This document shows positions 21,631-64,000 of a DNA stretch of 64,000 nt, piece after piece. The notes below the pieces were generated by a model that was not told where the DNA came from, did not search any database, and was given only the letters and a program-made list of their open reading frames with translations. A program made the position numbers and the translations under genes. The DNA lies in assembly GCA_027046625.1 (NCBI GenBank), contig JALTXX010000016.1:32001-96000 (forward strand). The letters are read 5' to 3'. Every line of letters starts with the position of its first letter. Position 1 is the first letter of the stretch. The stretch comes from Candidatus Micrarchaeota archaeon. Lineage in GTDB: Archaea; Iainarchaeota; Iainarchaeia; JAADDC01.

Positions 21631-21683
21631 AAACTATCCAATGTATGCATCACTTTTTTAACCCACCCATCCCTATTACATTC

Positions 21684-23984
21684 ATGTCCTATTCCATTAT
21701 TTCACCCCTCCTCATTATCCTCATCGTAGTAGCCTCCTCCCTCTTCCTCTACAACACCGTCATCTCCTCTCTCCAACCCATCCAGTCCACTCCTTCCTTC
21801 GTTCCACTAATCATCGAAGAATACAAACAGGAGGGCAACCTTCTCACCCTCTACATCAGAAACCCCTCAAACACCTCAGCCTCCCTCCCCTACATCCTCG
21901 TCAAAACAGAAGAAGGGATAACAAAGATTGACCTCAACGCCACCATCCCCCCAAACTCCTCCCAGCCCATCACGGTAGAGCTCCCCTCCACTACATCCCA
22001 AGAGATAGAGGTATCCCTTGGAGGAAGCACCTCCTACCAGGTCCAGATAGAGCCTACAACTTCACTGTCAGCTCTATTCTGCCCTATCCTACCTCCAGAC
22101 TGCACAGACCCCAACTCTCCCTGTGCAGGCACCGGCTGTTTAGCCTCGTATCCAAAGATCTTAGGAACTTATACATTTCCTACTAATGTTGCGCACGATA
22201 TGGCTCTTCATCCAGAAAGAAACCTGGCCTTCGTAGTCAACGGATATTCAGGCCTCCTCACCATCAACTACACAAATCCTTCCTCCCCAACATTAGAAGG
22301 AAACTATGACACCCCAGGCTATGCCCAGAGTGTAGCCCTTGATACCCAGAAGAACTTGGCCTTTGTAGCAGATAGATCATCAGGCCTCCTCATAATAAAT
22401 TACGCTATTCCATCTTCTCTTACCTTAGAAGGTAATTACAATACTTCTGGCGACGCTCTAGGAGTAGCCCTCCTCCCAGAAAAGAACCTCGCCTTCGTAG
22501 CCGACGGACTTTCAGGCCTCCTCATCATAAATTATACCAACCCCGCTAACCCTGTATTAGAAGGCAACTACAACACTCCAGGAACAGCTATCTCTGTGGC
22601 TCTCGATCCCGAAAAAAACCTTGCCTTTGTAATCGATGGCAATTTACAAATTGTTGACTACACCAACCCATCATCTCCAACCCTGGTAGGAAGCTATGCC
22701 ACCCCAGATAATGCATTTTCGGCTGCCTTACTTCCCGGGATGAATATAGCTTTTGTGGTGGTTGGTTACTCCGGTATTCTTATTATCGATTACACAGACC
22801 CCACAAACCCCACTTTAATTTCTGAGCATAACACTTTAAGCCCAGCGATTGATGTGGTTCTATCTCCAGAGAGTAACACCGCGTTTGTAGGCACCTACGA
22901 CTCTGTCATTGTTATAGATTATACAGATCCGGCAAATCCTGTAGTAGAGAAGAATTTCTTTATTAGTATAAATTACTCCATAGCCTTTTCTTCAGACAGG
23001 AACCTTTTATTTACGGGCTCATTCCATCAGATTAACATCATTGATTACTCGCAGCCTGACACTGCCCCATCGCTCCTTACTAACTACCCTATAAGCATAA
23101 TAACAAGGGGTACGGCAGTAGGAGTCATCCTCCTATCAGAGAAAAACCTTGCCTTTGTAGCCGACAGGGACTCAAACTATGTCCTCATCATAAACTACAC
23201 CGATCCTACAACCCCTATTTTAGAAGGCAACTACAACACTCCAGGAACAGCTATCTCTGTGGCTCTCGATCCCGAAAAAAACCTCGCCTTTGTAATCGAT
23301 GGCAATTTACAAATTGTTGACTACACCAACCCATCATCTCCAACCCTGGTAGGAAGCTATGCCACCCCAGGATATGCCCAGAGTGTAGCCCTTGATACCC
23401 AGAAGAACTTGGCCTTCGTGGCGGATAGTACCGCAGGTCTTCTAATAATCAGCTATACAGATCCTACCAGCCCTACTCTGGTAGGAAGCTATAGCGTACC
23501 ATACTATGCTGCTGGTGTTGCTCTCCTCCCAGAAAAGAACTTGGCCTTCGTAGCCGACGGACCTTCAGGCCTCCTCATCATAAATTATACCAACCCCGCT
23601 AACCCTGTATTAGAAGGCAACTACAACACTCCAGGATATGCTGAAGACGTAGCCATAGATATAGAAAGAAATCTGGCCTTTGTAGCAGACAATGAAGCAG
23701 GTGTTCAAATAATAGACTATACTATCTCCTCCTCCCCAGTAATAGCAGGATCCTACGACACCCCGGGCTACGTATTCAATGTAGCCCTCCTCCCAGAAAA
23801 GAACTTGGCCTTCGTAGCCGACGGACCTTCAGGCCTCCTCATCATCAACTACACTAACCCATCATCTCCAACCCTAGTAGCAAGATCGTATCCAGCGTCA
23901 ACAGATGTAGCATTGGATGGAAACCTGTTGTTTGTTGCTGGAGGAAACCTTTACGTTCTAAACATCTGCAACTGTTTGACTTAA
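21684..23984 (+). CDS. Pilin-like N-terminus fused to an LVIVD-repeat beta-propeller; candidate adhesin
   Basis: MSYSIISPLLIILIVV N-terminus, pilin-like strands LIIEEY...LYIRNPS, Cys linker, then many ~42-45 aa repeats (NLAFVADG.SGLLIINYTNP..P.L.G.Y.TPG). Confidence 0.82.
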   Translation: MSYSIISPLLIILIVVASSLFLYNTVISSLQPIQSTPSFVPLIIEEYKQEGNLLTLYIRNPSNTSASLPYILVKTEEGITKIDLNATIPPNSSQPITVELPSTTSQEIEVSLGGSTSYQVQIEPTTSLSALFCPILPPDCTDPNSPCAGTGCLASYPKILGTYTFPTNVAHDMALHPERNLAFVVNGYSGLLTINYTNPSSPTLEGNYDTPGYAQSVALDTQKNLAFVADRSSGLLIINYAIPSSLTLEGNYNTSGDALGVALLPEKNLAFVADGLSGLLIINYTNPANPVLEGNYNTPGTAISVALDPEKNLAFVIDGNLQIVDYTNPSSPTLVGSYATPDNAFSAALLPGMNIAFVVVGYSGILIIDYTDPTNPTLISEHNTLSPAIDVVLSPESNTAFVGTYDSVIVIDYTDPANPVVEKNFFISINYSIAFSSDRNLLFTGSFHQINIIDYSQPDTAPSLLTNYPISIITRGTAVGVILLSEKNLAFVADRDSNYVLIINYTDPTTPILEGNYNTPGTAISVALDPEKNLAFVIDGNLQIVDYTNPSSPTLVGSYATPGYAQSVALDTQKNLAFVADSTAGLLIISYTDPTSPTLVGSYSVPYYAAGVALLPEKNLAFVADGPSGLLIINYTNPANPVLEGNYNTPGYAEDVAIDIERNLAFVADNEAGVQIIDYTISSSPVIAGSYDTPGYVFNVALLPEKNLAFVADGPSGLLIINYTNPSSPTLVARSYPASTDVALDGNLLFVAGGNLYVLNICNCLT
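22557..22707 (+). repeat. Intragenic direct repeat, copy 1 (151 bp; copy 2 at 23220-23370)
   Basis: TTAGAAGGCAACTACAAC...GCCACCCCAG recurs 663 bp downstream; one mismatch seen. Confidence 0.9.
23220..23370 (+). repeat. Intragenic direct repeat, copy 2
   Basis: Near-identical to 22557-22707. Confidence 0.9.
23523..23636 (+). repeat. Intragenic direct repeat (114 bp) of 22470-22583
   Basis: CTCCTCCCAGAAAAGAAC...CAACACTCCAGGA with few mismatches; offset 1053 bp. Confidence 0.88.
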
Positions 23985-24931
23985 TGCTTTTTTAGCTTTA
24001 GGATGAGGGAGTGGTATTTGTATGTTTTGTCCAGCATTTCAAGGTATCTTTGAAGAATCGCTGCCATGGCCCTTCTCTTCGTGTTTTTGTCCCTTATCTT
24101 TTCAAGAGTGGATTCCATAAACTCTGAGAGAGCTGGGGTGGAGAAAAGATGCCATAAAATCTCAACCTTATCCTCAATGTTTTTATCAGGCCTGAATCTG
24201 CCCTCAATAGTGTCTTTAACAGCCTTCTTCAGCTCCTCCTCTATGGATTCCCTGTATTTGTGTGGAGTGTAGGGAGCTTCCTCGCAGCGACCTTCCTCTC
24301 TGCACTCCTTTATCATGCGTTCAAATTCCTCTCTCCCCTCAAAGAAGGCTAGAGGTTTGTTCTTTGGTGCTACCTGGGGCAGCATGTAGCCCTCCTCCTT
24401 AGTGAGGGGCATGTAATTCCACACCACCTCTATGGGGGTGTTGTACTTCTCTTCTATTTCTCTGACGATGCGGGCCACCTTTTCAGAATCCTTTAGGTTG
24501 TCCACCACAATGAGCAGATCAAGATCATCTACCATGCCTATATCAGGAACGTCTCTCATTTTCACGGGAACCCCATACATATTCATGGTAAGGGTACCCC
24601 CTCTAACTGCAAATACCTTTAGATTCTTTCCCAACGCCTTTTTTACTTTGTTGTAAACCTCTATGGCAGTTTTTAGATGTTTCTTGTAAAGATCTGCGTA
24701 CACGGTAGCCCCTTCCTTTACAATATCCCCTTTCAGATTCTTCATGACGGCGTCTTTCTTTGCAGCCGTTCTAATGGGGTATCCCTTCCTGAGCTCCTGC
24801 TCTCCTTTCTTATTTATGTAGTAATATCCATGACCTATATTTTCTAGTTCTTTCCAGAATTCCTCAAATATGAAGGGTTTACCTCTTTCTCTCAATCTTT
24901 TGGCAGCCTTCTCCCACGGATGTATCTCCAT
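23981..24931 (-). CDS. Hypothetical protein with a pol-beta-like nucleotidyltransferase motif
   Basis: FAVRGGT...DDLDLLIVV and IEVV resemble the hG[GS]...DhD motif; the rest is unrecognised. Confidence 0.5.
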   Translation of the reverse strand: MEIHPWEKAAKRLRERGKPFIFEEFWKELENIGHGYYYINKKGEQELRKGYPIRTAAKKDAVMKNLKGDIVKEGATVYADLYKKHLKTAIEVYNKVKKALGKNLKVFAVRGGTLTMNMYGVPVKMRDVPDIGMVDDLDLLIVVDNLKDSEKVARIVREIEEKYNTPIEVVWNYMPLTKEEGYMLPQVAPKNKPLAFFEGREEFERMIKECREEGRCEEAPYTPHKYRESIEEELKKAVKDTIEGRFRPDKNIEDKVEILWHLFSTPALSEFMESTLEKIRDKNTKRRAMAAILQRYLEMLDKTYKYHSLILKLKKH

Positions 24932-24980: not shown

Positions 24981-25064
24981 GCCGGGGTGGCCGAGCGGTC
25001 CAAGGCGCCGGACTCGAGATCCGGTGGGATCACTCCCGCGCGGGTTCAAATCCCGCCCCCGGCG
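24981..25064 (+). tRNA. tRNA-Ser (anticodon CGA)
   Basis: GCCGGGG/CCCCGGC acceptor stem; CCGGA-CT-CGA-GA-TCCGG anticodon arm; long variable arm GGGA-TCAC-TCCC; G discriminator. Confidence 0.96.
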
Positions 25065-25067
25065 CTG

Positions 25068-25136
25068 TTAAGCTTCCACAGTATCACATACTCTTATCCC
25101 CTTCCCTATAAGACAGATCTTCATCTCCAACGCTTC
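25068..25136 (-). pseudogene. 3' relic of a third pilin-lectin paralog
   Basis: Translates EALEMKICLIGKGIRVCDTVEA*, matching the C-termini KLKICLIGEGVNVCDTVKV* and DVRVCLVGKGLRVCDTTAT*. Confidence 0.85.
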
Positions 25137-25335
25137 GCTCTTTGATTTTTTCCCACTTCAGGGTATTTACTCTACCAGATAGGACCTCTCTTAGGCGCTC
25201 CTCGAGTTCTTTCCCACGGGTTTCTTCCTCTTTCTCAAATAGCAGGTCTACAAAAGTGTTGAATATTTCTTCCAAGTTAGTAATTCGTGTCTCCAGTTAC
25301 TCGATCCTCTTCTCTAACGTGGTAGCCTTCTCCAT
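25137..25335 (-). pseudogene. Small antitoxin-like gene with internal stop, fused out of frame to the pilin relic
   Basis: MEKATTLEKRIE*LETRITNLEEIF...EERLREVLSGRVNTLKWEKIKE with TAA at 25299-25297; the coiled coil and 'G....WE.IK' end resemble archaeal RelB-type antitoxins. Confidence 0.5.
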
Positions 25336-25401
25336 GTTAAGAACTTACCCTATTCTACATTTAAACCTCTTCTATCACAGCCGAAATCTTGGTGGAGAAT
25401 G

Positions 25402-26268
25402 TCAAGTGGCAGTAGTATCACAAACTCTTAGCCCCTTCCCTACAAGACACACCCTAACATCAATGAACTGAAAACCTGTTTTGGAGGGAATCGCCTGAAG
25501 TGTACAACTTGCACTCCCGCCTGGGGAAACAGGAAGGATAGTATCGCATTTTACAACCGGTATGTAGAGGGACCGTACAGTACCTCCTATGTTTACATCA
25601 ACCCTGATTGGTTCTCCAATCCTCTTTGAGGCAACTGTATAACCAGATAATGTCTCTATCCTAAGCGTTAAACTTCCAAGGATCAAATTCCTTGTAGAAG
25701 AATGATTAGACACAGTAAACCCAATTCCGATCTTCTCACATATGAAGGGAAGAGGTACGGACCCATTTCTATCATCCCATCCCGTGGATGTTATGACGGC
25801 AACATCCTCCCCGTTAGCATCATCTGGCTTGCCACCCATCCAAAAATCACCCACTATAGGATCTCCCGTAATGTACTTCCACCCACCATCTGGCTCTGAA
25901 GATTCAGGGGATTGGTACACCCCTATGTATGCTGCACTCCACCCCTTAGAGCTAACAATATTTTTCAGCACATTGTTTTGACCATCCGTTCTGGGAGTGG
26001 CAAGAAACATACCCCTCTCTTTACAGTAATTAAATGCATCTACCCAGTTCATGGGGGTAGAAACAGGCAGGTAATAGTGCAAATAATAGCTAGCAATTCC
26101 TGGTGGACCTACCTCTTTATAGGCTTCAAGCGACACCCCTATGGGAGAGGTATCCTCAGCTGTAGTCTGCTCAGAAAGTTTTGCCACACCCATGTATATG
26201 ATTATCCCAAGTGCCAGTACTGTAGCTATGAGGAGGAGTGTTGCCACAATGGGTGAGATGCCTCTCAT
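25402..26268 (-). CDS. Type IV pilin-like protein with inserted C-type lectin domain (paralog 2)
   Basis: Class III signal MRG|ISPIVATLLLIA; CTLD motifs NWVDAFNYC, FLA, AYIGV, FW..GKPDD, EDVA, WDD, PFICEK. Confidence 0.88.
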   Translation of the reverse strand: MRGISPIVATLLLIATVLALGIIIYMGVAKLSEQTTAEDTSPIGVSLEAYKEVGPPGIASYYLHYYLPVSTPMNWVDAFNYCKERGMFLATPRTDGQNNVLKNIVSSKGWSAAYIGVYQSPESSEPDGGWKYITGDPIVGDFWMGGKPDDANGEDVAVITSTGWDDRNGSVPLPFICEKIGIGFTVSNHSSTRNLILGSLTLRIETLSGYTVASKRIGEPIRVDVNIGGTVRSLYIPVVKCDTILPVSPGGSASCTLQAIPSKTGFQFIDVRVCLVGKGLRVCDTTAT

Positions 26269-26326
26269 CCTAACGAAAAAAAAACGATGAATAAATACCT
26301 TTCGGCCAGAGGTCGTTATGTATAAT
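26241..26326 (-). promoter_or_regulatory. Duplicated promoter and 5' end of the pilin-lectin gene, copy A
   Basis: 45 bp identical to 27941-27985; BRE/TATA CGAAAGGTATTTATT; T9 tract between TATA and ATG; shared upstream 12-mer ATTATACATAAC. Confidence 0.85.
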
Positions 26327-26360
26327 AACCCCTTATATACATCCCCTCCCATTTAATAGC

Positions 26361-26684
26361 ATGGAACCCCTTTCCACCATTAAGCGAATAATAGAGGAGG
26401 AAGCCTCCCGCCTCAACATAAAAATAGAGAGGATTATCCTCTTTGGAAGCAGAGCAAAGGGAACAGAGAGAAAGGATAGTGACTATGACATTCTAGTAAT
26501 TACTCAGCATCCTGTAAGCAGACACCTTATGTATAAATTCCACTCTAACATTAGAATAAGGTTGTACAAACTTCTGGGGAGAGAGGTGGATATTATCGTT
26601 GTAGATAGGGACTGGTTTAAGCGGAGGAGTAGATTATGGGGAAGCGTGGAATACGCAGCGGCAAGGGAAGGAATGGTGGTGTGA
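26361..26684 (+). CDS. Minimal nucleotidyltransferase (MNT) antitoxin
   Basis: ILFGSRAKG...DSDYDILV and VDII motifs. Confidence 0.92.
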   Translation: MEPLSTIKRIIEEEASRLNIKIERIILFGSRAKGTERKDSDYDILVITQHPVSRHLMYKFHSNIRIRLYKLLGREVDIIVVDRDWFKRRSRLWGSVEYAAAREGMVV

Positions 26685-27064
26685 GTATTGTATGTGAGTG
26701 GTTGGAAAGAGCTAATAGAGACCTGAAAGCGTCTAAGTTACTCCTAGAGGAAGGATTATACGAGGAGTCAACCTTTCATTCCCAACAGGCTGTAGAAAAA
26801 GCCCTGAAGGCACTCCTTTTGGCTGTAAGGATCTTACCGCCAAGGACCCATAGCATAGAGCGGTTGTTGAGTATGCTAGAGGAGAAGATTGATGTTTCTT
26901 GGGCGTATGAGATGCACTTGCCAGCACTAACCTACTATGCCATAGAGGTGAGATACCCGTCCCCTCCTGTATCTGAGGAGGAGGCAATAGATATGCTAGA
27001 TATAGCAAGAAAAGCGATTGAAAGGGTGAAACTAATCTTGAAAGAGAAGAAAATACAATGCTAG
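26681..27064 (+). CDS. HEPN-domain protein, partner of the MNT
   Basis: WLERA.RDL, FHSQQAVEKALKALL, RTHSI and RYP motifs; GTGA overlap with the MNT stop. Confidence 0.92.
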   Translation: MSIVCEWLERANRDLKASKLLLEEGLYEESTFHSQQAVEKALKALLLAVRILPPRTHSIERLLSMLEEKIDVSWAYEMHLPALTYYAIEVRYPSPPVSEEEAIDMLDIARKAIERVKLILKEKKIQC

Positions 27065-27066
27065 AT

Positions 27067-27948
27067 CTATACCTTCACCGTATCACACACATTTACCCCT
27101 TCTCCAATAAGGCAAATCTTCAACTTGGATACCTCATAATCTACCTCCTTTAGAGGAAACGCCCAGAGAGAGCACGAGGCACTTACATTGGGTGGCACAT
27201 CCCATCTATCACATTTTAGGCGGGGAACGCTAACCCCTCCTACTCTTGTATTATTTATGTCCACAGAAAACCAGCTGAGGGAGTCTGTCTTCACCGCTGC
27301 TAGCAGTCTATTGTTTAGTGCGTCATACACATGAACACTTACATTGGTGAGATTCAGAATGCCTTCAGAGGATACATTGGTAACCGTGAATCCAATCATA
27401 ATCTTTTCACACACAAAGGGAAATAACTCCGCTCCGCTATAGTCATGAAGACCATCTGACCTTATAGCCGCCACATCTTCAGCTGTGTTATCATCTGGCT
27501 GCCCACTTGCCCAGAATCCTTCCCCTATCAATCCCATTGCATCCCCCGTAACATAGTACCATCCCTTGTCTGGCTCAGAAGACCCAGGACTCTGGAATAC
27601 ACCCACCCATGCGGCTGTCCACCCCTTGGCTGCAAGGATATGCTTTATCTTATCGAGCTGCAGAAGGGACTTTGGAGCTGCAAGAAACATCCCCCTCTCC
27701 TTACAATAGTTAAACGCTCCTATCCAGTTCATTCCCGTAGAAACAGGCACATAGTACCTGAAGTAGCCAATGGATGCCCCTCGTGGTGGATAATCTAGGT
27801 ATGCCTCCATCACAACAGAGTATATCTGCCCCTGCTGGCCAGAGGTACCCTCCACCATCTGAGAAACACCCATATAGAGCAATGCTCCAATAGCAACAAC
27901 GATAGCAATCAACAGCACCGTTGCCACGATGGGTGAGATACCTCTCAT
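27067..27948 (-). CDS. Type IV pilin-like protein with inserted C-type lectin domain (paralog 1)
   Basis: Class III signal MRG|ISPIVATVLLIAIVVA; CTLD motifs NWIGAFNYC, AWVGV, FW..GQPDD, EDVA, LHD, PFVCEK. Confidence 0.9.
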   Translation of the reverse strand: MRGISPIVATVLLIAIVVAIGALLYMGVSQMVEGTSGQQGQIYSVVMEAYLDYPPRGASIGYFRYYVPVSTGMNWIGAFNYCKERGMFLAAPKSLLQLDKIKHILAAKGWTAAWVGVFQSPGSSEPDKGWYYVTGDAMGLIGEGFWASGQPDDNTAEDVAAIRSDGLHDYSGAELFPFVCEKIMIGFTVTNVSSEGILNLTNVSVHVYDALNNRLLAAVKTDSLSWFSVDINNTRVGGVSVPRLKCDRWDVPPNVSASCSLWAFPLKEVDYEVSKLKICLIGEGVNVCDTVKV

Positions 27949-28006
27949 CCTAACGAAAAAAAAACGATGAATAAATACCTTTCGGTTGGGAATTGTTATG
28001 TATAAT
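27921..28006 (-). promoter_or_regulatory. Duplicated promoter and 5' end of the pilin-lectin gene, copy B
   Basis: Direct repeat of 26241-26326 at an offset of 1680 bp. Confidence 0.85.
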
Positions 28007-28009
28007 TAT

Positions 28010-28762
28010 CTATCTTAGGGCTTCCCAGAGGATTTCGTCGTGAGAATACACCTGTATTCCCTTTTCCGTAATAGCTAGAGGATGCACTCTGTTTGAATGT
28101 CTTGTACCTCTCATCTTTCGTATAAAGATTGCCCTGTGGGGCGGTATAAAGTATAGCCTTATCACACCATCTGCTACAAACTCCTCCACTCCAAAGGTGG
28201 AGAACTTCATCCTATCATCCGGAGCTCCTGCTGTAAGAACGGTGGTTACTCCCAACTCCTTTAGCTTATCCAGCAGATAGTACAAGTAAAAATCTACGGA
28301 AGAGGGATCATATGCCCATATACCCTTTGTACTATCTCCTGCAAGTGGAACAGCCCCCAAATATTTTACCAACGCAGTCAGAGAGTCTATGGCAACTCTA
28401 AAGGCTTCAATCTTTGTTACCAGACTTACAATTTCATCCACTTCTTTTCTCCAGTTTTCTCTAAACTGGCGAGGGGAGGATACCCTTACTCTGAAGATCT
28501 TCATGGCATTGGCAACAGAAGTATAATCCCACTTGAAGTTCTGCAGGTTCCACGTGATGTTGGAGGCTGGCTCCTCCAGCGTTATAAACACACCGGGCTC
28601 TTGATAGAGGGACGCTCCTGCGTAGATATATTGCAGTGCAAAGATAGTTTTACCTGTACCCGGACCGCCAACCACCAGAATATTGGAGTTGCGGGGGAAC
28701 CCCCCAGATATGAGGTCATCCAAACCTGGGATGCCTGTCTGTACTCTCTCCACGCTATCCAT
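28010..28762 (-). CDS. KaiC/RAD55-like single-domain ATPase
   Basis: TGIPGLD, GGPGTGKT, ITLEE, IDS, EFVADGVI and KMRGT.H motifs. Confidence 0.92.
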   Translation of the reverse strand: MDSVERVQTGIPGLDDLISGGFPRNSNILVVGGPGTGKTIFALQYIYAGASLYQEPGVFITLEEPASNITWNLQNFKWDYTSVANAMKIFRVRVSSPRQFRENWRKEVDEIVSLVTKIEAFRVAIDSLTALVKYLGAVPLAGDSTKGIWAYDPSSVDFYLYYLLDKLKELGVTTVLTAGAPDDRMKFSTFGVEEFVADGVIRLYFIPPHRAIFIRKMRGTRHSNRVHPLAITEKGIQVYSHDEILWEALR

Positions 28763-38398: not shown

Positions 38399-39325
38399 TA
38401 GCCTTATAATCTCCTCTAGGGCCCTGTCAATGTGTTTTTGTTGTGACAGAGTGGAAACAAATGCGTGGGGAGTTAAAACCCCCAGCTCTGACACAATACC
38501 AGTAATATACCTTGGAGGCGTTACATCAAATGCAGGATTCCTTATCTTTGCTCCTGGCAGTTCCTTGGGATCAATCACTTCCTTGGGATCCCGCTCCTCA
38601 ATAGGTTCCTTATATCCTAGAATGGTAGCGGGATCGAACTTGTAGGTAGACGCTGCCACATAGTAGGGTACACCCATCTCCCTTGCAGAAACAGCCATCA
38701 GAGCGGTACCTATCTTGTTTATAACCCTTCCATCCGCTGTAATAACATCCGCTCCTGTCATATAAAGATCCACATCCTTCATGAAGTAGTGTGCAGCGCC
38801 ATCCACTATATACATAACATCCACACCCATCCCCAACAACTCCTTTGCTGTAATCTTTCCTTGGTAGCGTGGACGTGTCTCTGTTACGATAACAGTAAAC
38901 TTTTTCTCCTTTGAAGCTTCCTCAAACACCCTCATGAGAGTAGAGGAATGGCAGTGGGTAATAACAGTGTATCCATCCTCTATGAGACGGGCTCCAATTC
39001 TTCCAATTGCAGCATCAACCTCTTTCATATGTTCAGCATAATTTTCAAGGGAACGCTTCAGCTGTCTTATCCTCTCGGGTGGTGGTAGGTCCTTCCCTTT
39101 TCTGAGCTCCCTCAGCACAAATGCCATAGCATCTCTAAGAGCCGGTTCTGTTGGTCTTGTTTTTACCAACACCTTTACAGCATCCACTACCTCCTTTTCC
39201 ACATCCTTCGGTTCATCAAGAAGAAGGGCATAGATGGCGGCCACCGCCCTTTCTGCTATACGTTTAGCTCCTTGAATTTTTAGTTCCTTGATTTGTTTTG
39301 CTGTTTCCTCCACTACAGGATGCAT
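38387..39325 (-). CDS. Ribose-1,5-bisphosphate isomerase (eIF-2B alpha/beta/delta family)
   Basis: IQGA..IA, RPTEP, THCHSS (catalytic Cys), ETRP, GAD...NKIGT and NPAFDVTP motifs. Confidence 0.85.
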   Translation of the reverse strand: MHPVVEETAKQIKELKIQGAKRIAERAVAAIYALLLDEPKDVEKEVVDAVKVLVKTRPTEPALRDAMAFVLRELRKGKDLPPPERIRQLKRSLENYAEHMKEVDAAIGRIGARLIEDGYTVITHCHSSTLMRVFEEASKEKKFTVIVTETRPRYQGKITAKELLGMGVDVMYIVDGAAHYFMKDVDLYMTGADVITADGRVINKIGTALMAVSAREMGVPYYVAASTYKFDPATILGYKEPIEERDPKEVIDPKELPGAKIRNPAFDVTPPRYITGIVSELGVLTPHAFVSTLSQQKHIDRALEEIIRLSFG

Positions 39326-62567: not shown

Positions 62568-62621
62568 GTTTCTCCTATTATGGGAAATGCCTATAAAGAA
62601 GGACCGCCATTATACCTCACG

Positions 62622-64000
62622 ATGGGCATAAGAAAATTGAAGCGCGCATTAAGGAAGGTGCGCCACATACTATACGAAGAGGAGCTGCCAGCCCCTCCAA
62701 GGGTTTCTCCCCCTCCAGCTATGGAAGAAGAGGAGCTGGAAGATACTATCCCGCCAGAAATAGAGGAGCCAACCCCTACTGTTCCCTCTGTAGAGGATAA
62801 TGAAGATATGGATGAGGATGTTTCCTCTCTCTTGGTAGAGGAGATAGTGCCTACCCTTGAAAATGTAAAGGATGTGGTGACTGAAATAGTATCCCTTCCT
62901 GAAGACCTTCCTACGGAGATGAGTGTGGAGTGGAAACCTCCATCCTTTTCCAACGTAAATGAAGTGTACCCTCTCATTCCTCCCCATGCAAAGGCCCATA
63001 TATTCTGGTCGGAGCAGGACAAGAAACTTCTCTACCATGTGGAAGAGCCAGTCTTAACCCTCAGGGAAAGGGAGGATCTGGAGCGCATCAAATCCCTCCT
63101 TACAGATTTGGTGGATATTGGTGTATTTGAGGTAAAGGATTCAACCAAGCTGGAAATGTACATCTCAAAGAAGTTTGATGAGGTTGTAAGAGATTATGGT
63201 TTTTCTTTCTCTACCTTGCAGTATGAAAAAATAAAGTATTACGTGCTTAGAGACTTTGTGGGTCTTGAAAGGATAGAACCTCTTATGAGAGATCCAAACT
63301 TGGAGGATATTTCCTGCATCGGTCCTGGAGTCCCAATCTATGTATATCATCGAAAGTACGGCTCTTTACAGACCAATGTGATGTTTAAGACTAACGAGGA
63401 ACTTAACAGATTCATTGTAAAGCTTGCCCAACTCGTGGGGAAGCATGTCTCTGTTAGCAAGCCCCTTCTCCAAGGAGCTCTACCTGATGGCAGCAGGGTA
63501 CAGGCTACCTACGTAGTTACAGGAGATATTTCTACCAAGGGATCCAACTTTACTATAAGAAAGTTCACAAAAGATCCGCTAACTGTTACCGATCTTGTAC
63601 AAAATGGTACCCTCACACCTCTCCTTGCAGCATACCTGTGGATAGCGGTTGAATACCGATCTTCCATGCTAGTAGCGGGAGGAACTGCCACTGGAAAAAC
63701 AACTATGCTAAATGTTATCTCCATGTTTATCCCACCTGAGGCAAAGGTAGTTTCTATAGAAGATACACCAGAGCTTAGACTACCCCATGAAAACTGGGTA
63801 CAAAAAATTGCAAGAGAGGATAGAGAGGAAGGTACAGTGGATCTGTTCGATCTACTTAAGGCGGCCCTCAGAGAGAGGCCAGAATACATTATAGTGGGTG
63901 AGGTGAGAGGAAGAGAGACCTACGTTCTATTCCAAGGTATGGCCACTGGACACCCGGGTTTTGCTACTATCCACGCTGAGAATATGAAAACTCTAGTGGA
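62622..64000 (+). CDS. Type IV pilus/archaellum assembly ATPase (PilB/ArlI-like), partial; runs off the window end
   Basis: Not in the ORF track. Manual reading from ATG 62622 gives an acidic Pro-rich N-terminus, EDISC, GSRVQA, FTIRKF, Walker A GGTATGKTT, IEDTPEL, ALRERPEYIIVGEVRG and ATGH...TIHA. Confidence 0.92.
   Translation, partial: MGIRKLKRALRKVRHILYEEELPAPPRVSPPPAMEEEELEDTIPPEIEEPTPTVPSVEDNEDMDEDVSSLLVEEIVPTLENVKDVVTEIVSLPEDLPTEMSVEWKPPSFSNVNEVYPLIPPHAKAHIFWSEQDKKLLYHVEEPVLTLREREDLERIKSLLTDLVDIGVFEVKDSTKLEMYISKKFDEVVRDYGFSFSTLQYEKIKYYVLRDFVGLERIEPLMRDPNLEDISCIGPGVPIYVYHRKYGSLQTNVMFKTNEELNRFIVKLAQLVGKHVSVSKPLLQGALPDGSRVQATYVVTGDISTKGSNFTIRKFTKDPLTVTDLVQNGTLTPLLAAYLWIAVEYRSSMLVAGGTATGKTTMLNVISMFIPPEAKVVSIEDTPELRLPHENWVQKIAREDREEGTVDLFDLLKAALRERPEYIIVGEVRGRETYVLFQGMATGHPGFATIHAENMKTLV

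Follow-up and report, generated by a model that had tools for sequence, protein, structure and literature searches.

How DPANN archaea and ultra-small symbionts recognize and attach to their hosts is poorly known, and the leads are of two kinds, namely the type IV pilus and proteins of C-type-lectin fold that retroelements diversify. Excerpts of the published accounts, on which we draw here for the described systems, report that bacterial modular pilins with lectin modules are located at pilus tips and bind host glycans (PMC9934059); that DPANN archaea vary C-type-lectin-fold proteins by means of retroelements (PMC5006420, PMC7443923); that, in Sulfolobus, UpsA recognizes S-layer glycans for species-specific cell pairing (PMC7064770), and the proteins of the bindosome carry class III signal peptides and bind free sugars (PMC3047682); and that KaiC-family ATPases often lie near archaeal pilus loci (PMC4858521). 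Here we describe an archaeal protein family that appears to unite both leads in one protein, that is, a pilin-type anchor and a collectin-like lectin. Its reference members, pilin-lectin 1 and pilin-lectin 2, are encoded in a 64,000-nucleotide stretch of a Candidatus Micrarchaeota archaeon genome (assembly GCA_027046625.1, contig JALTXX010000016.1, positions 32,001 to 96,000; hereafter 'the window', to which all coordinates without a contig name refer), in an array at positions 25068–28762 that abuts a tRNA-Ser gene, contains toxin-antitoxin genes, and ends with a KaiC-like ATPase gene. An earlier note on the window had read this array as a tRNA-anchored cassette system of lectin-tipped type IV pilins.

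Comparison with the described systems shows likenesses and differences. In Streptococcus sanguinis PilC, a class III signal peptide with its pilin helix is combined with one module for glycan binding and another of Ig-like or beta-sandwich type, a layout that the proteins described here are predicted to share, and PilC functions in adhesion from a tip-located position; as described in the excerpt, PilC is bacterial, single-copy, encoded within the pil operon, and equipped with a concanavalin-A/galectin-type lectin C-terminal to a complete pilin moiety (PMC9934059), whereas the family described here is archaeal, has a C-type lectin between helix and sandwich, and comprises 12 dispersed paralogues with their own promoters. 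The variable proteins of diversity-generating retroelements of Nanoarchaeota and DPANN archaea (AvpA) belong to small symbiotic archaea, as the family described here probably does, and likewise present, on a C-type-lectin-fold scaffold, a variable ligand surface, which is proposed to mediate symbiont-host contact (PMC5006420); they fall into the FGE/AvpA subclasses, and their variation is generated by a reverse transcriptase with a template repeat (PMC5006420, PMC7443923), whereas the family described here matches Pfam Lectin_C and animal collectins and holds its variation in 12 germ-line paralogues. The Ups pili and bindosome of Sulfolobus are systems of archaeal class III signal-peptide proteins that recognize sugars, as the members of the family may do, but the excerpts describe neither a C-type lectin domain nor a large family under one promoter for them (PMC7064770, PMC3047682). 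In a literature search that covered main texts (lists of pilin arCOGs being in the supplements of PMC4858521 and PMC13705601), we found neither an archaeal pilin with a canonical C-type lectin nor a promoter-unified family of this kind.

We consider it fairly likely that the window contains one array of a lineage-specific family of modular type-IV-pilin-like surface lectins. The narrower statement, that the pilin-type lectins of the genome form a family that has diversified and recombines, has good support from the sequence comparisons and structure predictions reported below.

Results

A genome-wide family with a common upstream element

The assembly comprises 652,019 bp in 18 contigs and is 94% complete; the window lies on contig C16. 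The family has 12 full-length members, distributed over about seven loci and accounting for ~1.6% of the genome, and members are 36–71% identical in protein to pilin-lectin 1. The genome contains, besides these 12 copies, the relic of a further gene in the window (see below) and a fragment of 26 codons with which contig C1 begins; the fragment and a gene that runs off contig C12 have the same 5′ sequence, with a T8 tract, and are probably one gene.

The genes share an upstream element of ~57 nt, consisting of TTATACATAAC, a variable spacer of 9–10 nt, CCGAAA(G/A)GTATTTATTCATCG, a tract of six to nine T residues, CGTT(AGG), and the start codon. The element occurs 13 times in the genome, each time before a family gene and nowhere else, a pattern far beyond chance. 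It is nearly invariant even before paralogues with 36–40% protein identity, including the two most divergent members; within the coding region, mean pairwise nucleotide identity falls from 72% in the signal peptide to 46–58% elsewhere. In the window, the element of pilin-lectin 2 occupies 26269–26325 (minus strand; TTATACATAAC, 9-nt spacer, CCGAAAGGTATTTATTCATCG, T9, CGTTAGG) and the element of pilin-lectin 1 occupies 27949–28005 (minus strand; T9 at 27956–27964), beginning 4 nt past the stop codon of the KaiC-like gene. The 44 nt directly before the ATG are identical between the two genes, the products of which are 47% identical over their full length. The observation in the earlier note that each intact pilin of the array carries the same promoter thus extends to every copy in the genome.

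The 10-mer TTATACATAAC taken by itself is the commonest 10-mer of the genome, with 38 occurrences vs. ~1.2 expected: 13 are in pilin-lectin promoters, the 31-kb contig C18 accounts for 10, two of which form an inverted pair at C18:29716/29747, and sites in the window include 27995–28005, 26315–26325, and 38809–38818. It also occurs upstream of a T2SSE ATPase gene, a T2SSF gene, FtsZ, and SufBD. A role of the 10-mer as a pilus regulon motif is unsupported: of nine open reading frames (ORFs) scanned downstream of the 25 non-pilin sites, two encode T2SSE or T2SSF, and the other seven encode FtsZ, SufBD, an Lhr helicase, a P-type ATPase fragment, two unknown proteins, and a protein with a weak signal-peptide-peptidase match (E 8e-5, under the Pfam cut-off). 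Both genes of a separate, two-member family (C2:1441-2394 and C4:30531-31304; 39% identical, without a Pfam match) immediately precede a pilin-lectin gene of the same strand.

Predicted architecture: a pilin-type helix, an inserted C-type lectin, and a beta-sandwich

The N-terminus of the family proteins reads MRG followed by ISPIVATVLLIAIVVAIGALLY, that is, a three-residue leader with Gly at position −1 and a hydrophobic alpha-1 helix. Against TIGR02537, the model for the N-termini of archaellins and type IV pilins, the segment MRGISPIVATVLLIAIVVAIGALLY scores 28.5 bits in pilin-lectin 1 (cut-off 20), and AlphaFold2 places the N-terminal helix at residues 6–32.

Residues ~63–184 match Pfam Lectin_C (PF00059), with E 3.4e-11 for pilin-lectin 2 and E 1.3e-6 for pilin-lectin 1 (44.3 and 29.6 bits, the cut-off being 22.6). 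When a profile built from 11 paralogues is compared with PDB sequences, the best match is collectin-11 (E 1.8e-12), followed by SP-D, DC-SIGN, MBP-A, and langerin. The family pattern W.sGQPDD..gEDv....G(L/W)xD....PFiCE aligns to collectin-11, and its QPD..E..(L/W)xD columns coincide with the EPN..E..WND columns of the animal lectin. Structure comparison with Foldseek recovers this set of structures again, with E about 1e-6 and target-normalised TM-scores up to 0.84 (DC-SIGNR, langerin, and others), and Cys82 and Cys180, the alpha1-beta5 pair, are invariant in the family.

The C-terminal ~110 residues contain four invariant Cys and an invariant N-x-S sequon, for a total of six invariant Cys per protein, and none of the 12 reading frames, of about 290 codons each, is interrupted. 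The C-terminal domain is modelled as a beta-sandwich with a predicted local distance difference test (pLDDT) score of 88, and its four best Foldseek PDB rows are S. acidocaldarius FlaG and FlaF. We conclude from the models that the predicted protein is a pilin-type helix plus an inserted lectin plus a sandwich with weak resemblance to archaellin-type domains, and not a pilin ending in a lectin. The combination of a class III, pilin-type signal peptide with a C-type lectin domain, claimed in the earlier note, is thus supported by TIGR02537, Pfam Lectin_C, and structure prediction; the description 'lectin-tipped' holds for the presence of the lectin but not for its location, which is between N-terminal helix and beta-sandwich rather than C-terminal.

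The genome encodes two A24 prepilin peptidases and has seven T2SSE and eight T2SSF matches above cut-off, none of which adjoins a pilin-lectin gene. A 145-aa protein encoded on contig C4, the first residues of which are MRGISPIV, is plausibly a major pilin with a compatible helix; its match to UpsA spans the whole protein (E 7.8e-9, far under the equivalog cut-off), and it also matches ArlF. Seven T2SSE ATPases, several T2SSF loci, and two peptidases are an unusually heavy investment in type IV filaments for 652 kb. One of the T2SSE genes, encoding a type IV filament assembly ATPase, is at 62580–64000 (plus strand) and runs past the end of the window, with T2SSF platform genes next in the contig; the earlier note had recognized this ORF but had placed its start at 62622, and the first start codon is at 62580.

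Variation at the sugar site and in the lectin loops

In animal C-type lectins, the tripeptide EPN is associated with mannose-type specificity and the tripeptide QPD with galactose-type specificity. The 12 paralogues have, at this position, QPD (three copies), KPD, QPS, and EPT (two copies each), and QPE, EPS, and EPN (one copy each), and have, at the WND position, LHD (four copies), WND (three copies), WDD (two copies), and LDD, VHD, and WVD (one copy each). The two window copies have KPD and WDD (pilin-lectin 2) and QPD and LHD (pilin-lectin 1). The last Asp of the WND position is invariant, and the downstream Glu is present in 10 of 12 copies.

Mean pairwise identity is 81% in helix alpha-1 and 60–68% in the core strands but drops in three other regions: the long loop has 34%, beta3-beta4 has 38%, and helix alpha-2 has 29%. 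The low identity in the long loop and in beta3-beta4 indicates, at the level of aligned residues, that variation is focused where C-type lectins bind ligands. The paralogues, which keep the lectin scaffold and differ at EPN/QPD, at WND, and in the loops, probably constitute a germ-line repertoire of glycan specificities.

Arrays at tRNA genes with toxin-antitoxin modules

Every element that the earlier note had placed between tRNA-Ser and KaiC is present in that order. The array starts at a tRNA-Ser(cga) gene identified by ARAGORN (24981–25065, plus strand). Next is the relic of a third pilin-lectin gene (25068–25128, minus strand), consisting of the last ~19 codons, or ~60 nt, with 76–92% identity to the 3′ ends of five paralogues by blastn; the relic reads ...EALEMKICLIGKGIRVCDTVEA followed by a stop codon (25068–25070) 3 nt from the 3′ end of the tRNA-Ser(cga) gene. 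The 3′ end of an antitoxin-like pseudogene (25084–25337, minus strand) crosses the relic in another frame; the pseudogene is of Unstab_antitox/TIGR02574 type (PF09720 E 0.0025 and TIGR02574 E 0.0058, both under curated cut-offs) and contains an in-frame TAA at 25297–25299. The gene for pilin-lectin 2 (288 aa; 25402–26268, minus strand) has its true start at MRGISP, not at an upstream ATG at 26352, and is in divergent orientation to an MNT nucleotidyltransferase gene (26361–26684, plus strand; NTP_transf_2 E 1.2e-12). The MNT gene is followed by a HEPN gene (26636–27064, plus strand; HEPN E 1e-30), the stop codon of which is 2 nt from that of the gene for pilin-lectin 1 (293 aa; 27067–27948, minus strand), and the array ends with the gene for the single-domain KaiC-like ATPase (28010–28762, minus strand; PF06745 E 6.9e-59). 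The GC content of the array matches its surroundings.

MNT antitoxins of the MntA type are defined by the motif GSx10DxD and HEPN toxins of the HepT type by the motif Rx4-6H. The two window ORFs, which as called overlap at 26636–26684, contain these motifs, as FGSRAKGTERKDSDYD in MNT and RILPPRTH in HEPN. From motifs and adjacency, the genes are identified as a putative MntA/HepT type VII toxin-antitoxin pair; the score of the MNT protein against the NCBIfam MntA model is 46 bits, under the cut-off of 60.

Similar arrangements recur elsewhere in the genome, which has 44 tRNA genes according to ARAGORN. Pilin-lectin genes end 0, 0, 6, and 1 nt from the 3′ ends of the genes for tRNA-Leu(tag), (gag), (cag), and (caa), respectively, in convergent orientation in all four cases. 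Four of the five tRNA-Leu genes are thus occupied by a family member, and the fifth, tRNA-Leu(taa), is 1 kb from another member; the four occupied genes are identical outside the anticodon arm. The earlier claim of tRNA anchoring therefore stands for tRNA-Ser(cga) in the window, but the main anchor in the genome is tRNA-Leu. At two loci, C11 10180 and C11 35562, the neighbours are housekeeping genes and no tRNA gene abuts.

An array on contig C9 is bracketed by tRNA-Leu(cag) and tRNA-Ser(tga) and has the order tRNA-Leu, pilin, MNT-HEPN, pilin, ParE plus Unstab_antitox, pilin, 489-aa ORF, tRNA-Ser. The Unstab_antitox member of this array is intact (70 aa; E 6e-6, above cut-off) and occupies a position equivalent to that of the window pseudogene. 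By analogy with the C9 array, the window array may formerly have held a third pilin gene and a ParE gene beside the now broken antitoxin gene, with a deletion that spared ~19 codons of the pilin gene. The end of contig C7 and the beginning of contig C2 both lie within an MNT gene, and the two contigs probably form a third array, with the order tRNA-Leu(gag), pilin, pilin, MNT-HEPN, pilin, unknown gene, tRNA-Leu(taa). The unit of pilin plus toxin-antitoxin module, for which at least two occurrences had been claimed, is thus found twice in the window and again in two other arrays. All three HEPN genes of the genome, and one of its two ParE genes, are inside arrays.

Toxin-antitoxin modules stabilize chromosomal cassette arrays in Vibrio superintegrons. 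The arrays described here resemble superintegrons in that toxin-antitoxin modules are interleaved with variable cassettes; unlike superintegrons, they have no integron integrase and no attC sites, and each cassette has its own promoter.

Two segments, C8:6211-6235 (25 nt) and C18:1194-1214 (19–21 nt), are exact or near-exact copies of tRNA-Ser/Leu 3′ ends outside the tRNA genes called by ARAGORN; they could be parts of intron-containing or split tRNA genes, or old attachment-site remnants. ARAGORN also calls a 91-nt tRNA at C11:38953-39043 with anticodon undetermined.

Signs of array turnover and of recombination between copies

The block KaiC-ScpA-ScpB-Hsp20-RNase HII is conserved in six relatives (four of the same genus and two of a sister genus), in which it occurs without pilin-lectins; KaiC orthologues of the four same-genus genomes are 81–90% identical. 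On the other side of KaiC, the six relatives have unrelated genes, with no pilin-lectin, toxin-antitoxin module, or tRNA-Ser within the 0.7–5 kb examined. A role for KaiC as a dedicated array regulator is accordingly unsupported, and, since the KaiC block exists without the pilin in relatives, its adjacency to the array is probably incidental. The KaiC-like gene of the earlier note is thus present, but its proposed link to the pilin array finds no support. Comparison of the KaiC-to-tRNA-Ser interval across relatives, which the note had proposed as a check, shows variable content, with no array beside KaiC in the six genomes, the genomes compared being different species. In the sister-genus genome G007, the gene directly downstream of the KaiC orthologue (G007:C4 2484-4874, minus strand) encodes a 796-aa class III signal-peptide protein that starts MRGISAIVAE... 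and has a TafC-family match under cut-off (E 1.4e-12); G007 is the only relative with such a protein at this position.

Comparison of family genes within the genome points to exchange of sequence between arrays. The closest relative of each gene lies in another array, as in the pairs C16 59067 and C2 503, C16 57402 and C9 10851, and C9 12323 and C11 35562. Nucleotide identity between pilin-lectin 2 and C9 10851 changes along the gene, from 92–97% in promoter and signal peptide to about 58% in the linker, 90–100% in the lectin, and 67–97% in the C-terminal domain. The MNT 5′ end and the intergenic region are 95–100% identical among three arrays, vs. 46–60% protein identity for the rest of MNT-HEPN. 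Such mosaics speak for gene conversion or for exchange between the arrays. The gain and loss of array parts proposed in the earlier note is supported by the relic, the broken antitoxin gene, the inter-array mosaics, and the absence of an array beside KaiC in six relatives; the view of a single-locus cassette system fails, the family comprising 12 genes genome-wide.

A diversity-generating retroelement as source of the variation is rejected: there is no RVT_1 match in the 94%-complete genome and no template-like repeat of the lectin loops at the locus.

Distribution of the family

A search with pilin-lectin 1 identifies full-length relatives in one of five other genomes of the same genus, G004, with five matches of 24–30% identity; the other same-genus genomes (78–83% complete) yield N-terminal matches to small pilins only. 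The 12 copies are monophyletic with respect to the G004 copies (support 99/98), which suggests either lineage-specific expansions or concerted evolution of the copies.

Among 1.84 billion representative proteins, a profile search finds the full architecture in only about eight clusters (from the genome itself, G004-like, and P0033). P0033 is a distant relative that retains EPN, WND, and the second disulfide. The remaining strong profile matches comprise the lectin domain only, in long proteins with multiple C-type lectin domains (CTLDs). A homologous-protein search returned 10 proteins, 44–100% identical to the genome's own paralogues, a few of them encoded on contigs that differ in length from those of the present assembly. 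In a collection of genome contigs, the matches are N-terminal only (26–39 residues, at three loci), and a collection of metagenome contigs contains no match to the protein profile and none to a 27-nt promoter pattern. The stretch itself is present in Logan contigs of two sequencing runs from one hydrothermal-vent metagenome study, in which contigs are fragmented across repeats.

In a genome of the same order, G015, a C-type lectin domain 30% identical to that of the family occurs in a 1029-aa ORF (G015:C49:8208-8480), which indicates that the domain occurs in other surface-protein architectures of the group.

Simple-sequence tracts at the 5′ ends of the genes

The T tract of the upstream element varies in length. 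The 13 copies, including the contig-end fragment, comprise one T6, two T7, five T8, and five T9 tracts, both window copies having T9. The T tract lies between a B recognition element (BRE)/TATA-like block and the ATG, and, in T9 copies, the ATG is 21 nt past the TATA-like block TATTTATT. A TATA-to-ATG spacing of 21 nt fits a leaderless archaeal transcript. Shorter T tracts would shift the transcription start into or beyond the start codon.

The G004 copies have a conserved 5′ block of their own, with a (GA)n tract of 10–15 nt that lies in the leader-peptide frame before the RGVSPIVAT codons (loci L036-L040). The tract is in frame with an upstream ATG in two of the five copies and, in the other three, is out of frame by 2 nt, that is, by one unit, relative to the nearest upstream ATG or GTG.

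Varying T6–T9 tracts in one genome and a frame-shifting (GA)n tract in the other are a signature of contingency loci. We tentatively raise the possibility that the genes are archaeal contingency loci, in which tract slippage would toggle each gene and a clonal symbiont population would show shifting lectin subsets; recombination at the promoter/signal-peptide block and at tRNA-Leu genes would additionally shuffle cassettes between arrays. The Opa and pilE/pilS families of Neisseria, which are contingency adhesin families, have homogenized 5′ ends, carry simple-sequence tracts in or ahead of the leader peptide, and recombine among their copies. The family described here is, like these, a multigene family of apparent surface adhesins with a homogenized 5′ end, tracts, and recombination, features that are seen here from sequence alone; unlike these, it has a T run before the start codon and an archaeal host with probably leaderless transcripts. 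If 5′ tracts do switch expression, the family would be a rare documented case of archaeal phase variation.

Discussion

According to the reading that we favor, the window array is part of a family of pilin-type surface lectins that would function as follows. One of the two A24 prepilin peptidases would remove the leader, and one of the several type IV filament machineries would handle the protein for display at the cell surface, most likely as a bulky minor or tip subunit that co-assembles with the 145-aa UpsA-like pilin, with which it shares MRGISPIV. Displayed lectins would bind glycans of the host cell envelope; the ectosymbiotic lifestyle that this presupposes is suggested by the 652-kb genome size. 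One near-invariant promoter on all copies would make the genes co-regulated or individually switched. Arrays would grow, shrink, and swap parts by homologous recombination between two kinds of repeated blocks: the promoter plus signal-peptide segment, and the near-identical class II tRNA genes that abut arrays. The MNT-HEPN and ParE/antitoxin modules would either keep arrays in place, as addictive elements, or simply share a region prone to recombination with the pilin genes.

Several observations weigh against this reading, at the level of pilin identity, of sugar binding, and of genome context. Pilin-lectin 2 scores 17.6 bits against TIGR02537, under the cut-off of 20; there is no match to a Pfam pilin family at E≤0.1; hhalign of the C-terminal domain with the 145-aa C4 pilin is not significant; the FlaG/FlaF rows are weak (E 0.03–0.06), with TMq 0.62 for the best FlaG rows and 0.52–0.56 for the other two; and the full-length AlphaFold2 model has a mean pLDDT of 72, with 50–60 in the lectin loops. 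The second CTLD disulfide is absent, the Cys position of 'EDC' being occupied by Val, Ile, or similar in all 12 copies (the two conserved CTLD disulfides are C1-C4 and C2-C3). A fully canonical QPD+WND pair occurs in one of 12 copies (C9 9183), EPN with WND occurs in none of 12, and two copies have Lys at the first Ca-ligand position. Because of these non-canonical site residues, the Lys copies, and the missing second disulfide, Ca-dependent sugar binding may be lost or altered in many members. No RNA run is among the sequencing runs that contain the stretch, and the relatives compared are different species, such that differences in content are not strain-level turnover. A control shows that convergent ORFs of 80 aa or more end no further than 40 nt from 14 of the 44 tRNA genes, for the most part at 0–5 nt. 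Finally, a class III signal peptide on Sulfolobus sugar-binding proteins leads to the bindosome and is thus, by the excerpted account, no proof of incorporation into a filament (PMC3047682).

The last point leads to the alternative that survives best, which we nevertheless regard as unlikely: that the proteins are bindosome-like or membrane-anchored lectins, in which the signal peptide serves for processing and anchoring and no filament is formed, and which coat the cell or form a short pseudopilus in order to capture glycans or to attach. The Sulfolobus precedent, with class III signal peptides on the sugar-binding proteins that the Bas system assembles (PMC3047682, excerpt), is joined by three properties of the family: at about 290 aa with two globular domains, its members are large for pilins; no member is encoded in an operon with a T2SSE/T2SSF pair; and FlaG and FlaF, the best structural matches of the C-terminal domain, are periplasmic stator proteins and not filament subunits. 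Against this stand the existence of a small UpsA-like pilin with the same MRGISPIV N-terminus, the absence from the ORF survey of ABC transporter genes beside any of the seven loci, and the location at pilus tips of bacterial modular pilins with lectin modules, as excerpted (PMC9934059).

An improbable alternative is that the diversity reflects relaxed drift of redundant duplicates, and that the adjacencies to toxin-antitoxin, tRNA, and KaiC genes are accidents of a compact genome. The frequency of convergent abutment on tRNA genes (14 of 44) favors drift, and it leads us to reject the notion that abutment of pilin and tRNA genes is special in itself; the non-conserved KaiC adjacency and the many non-canonical sugar-site motifs also fit drift. 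However, the intactness of 12 of 12 frames, with invariant scaffold residues and six invariant Cys, and the near-invariance of the promoter across copies are not as expected of drifting duplicates, and a 652-kb genome under strong reduction would shed 10 kb of junk. The special feature of the genomic setting is enrichment on tRNA-Leu: the family represents about 1.7% of genes, such that ~0.24 members are expected among the 14 genes that abut a tRNA gene, and four are observed, at four of the five tRNA-Leu genes. This occupancy, together with the location of three of three HEPN genes in arrays, is unlikely by chance.

Least probable of all is that the arrays are cargo of tRNA-targeting integrative elements or proviruses, with the lectins as receptor-binding or exclusion proteins and the toxin-antitoxin modules as maintenance functions: the location of arrays at tRNA genes, the presence of toxin-antitoxin modules, and the absence of the array from the same site in relatives would fit, but there are no partial tRNA copies (att-type direct repeats) at the far array ends and no integrase-like ORF among neighbours in the ORF survey and Pfam scans (the integrase family was not searched genome-wide), array GC is the same as that of the surroundings, one promoter is on all copies of a family that is monophyletic within the genome, and C11 10180 and C11 35562 are among housekeeping genes, without a tRNA gene.

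Read as a family of pilin-type surface lectins, the genes would represent a different route to diversity from that of retroelements: that is, a promoter-unified multigene set with variation focused on sugar-specificity residues. The family also provides twelve clonable candidate domains for host-glycan recognition, with differing residues at the EPN/QPD site, together with a defined promoter element.

Two further genes lie just upstream of the window array. An ORF at 23981–24931 encodes a 316-aa protein without a family match. A gene at 21645–23984 (plus strand) encodes a 779-aa protein with nine LVIVD repeats (PF08309, E 1.3e-51) and a pilin-like hydrophobic N-terminus (…SIISPLLIILIVVASSLFLYN) that is common to ORFs C11:37553-38902 and C11:7765-8994; the three ORFs with this N-terminus look like a second surface or adhesin family.

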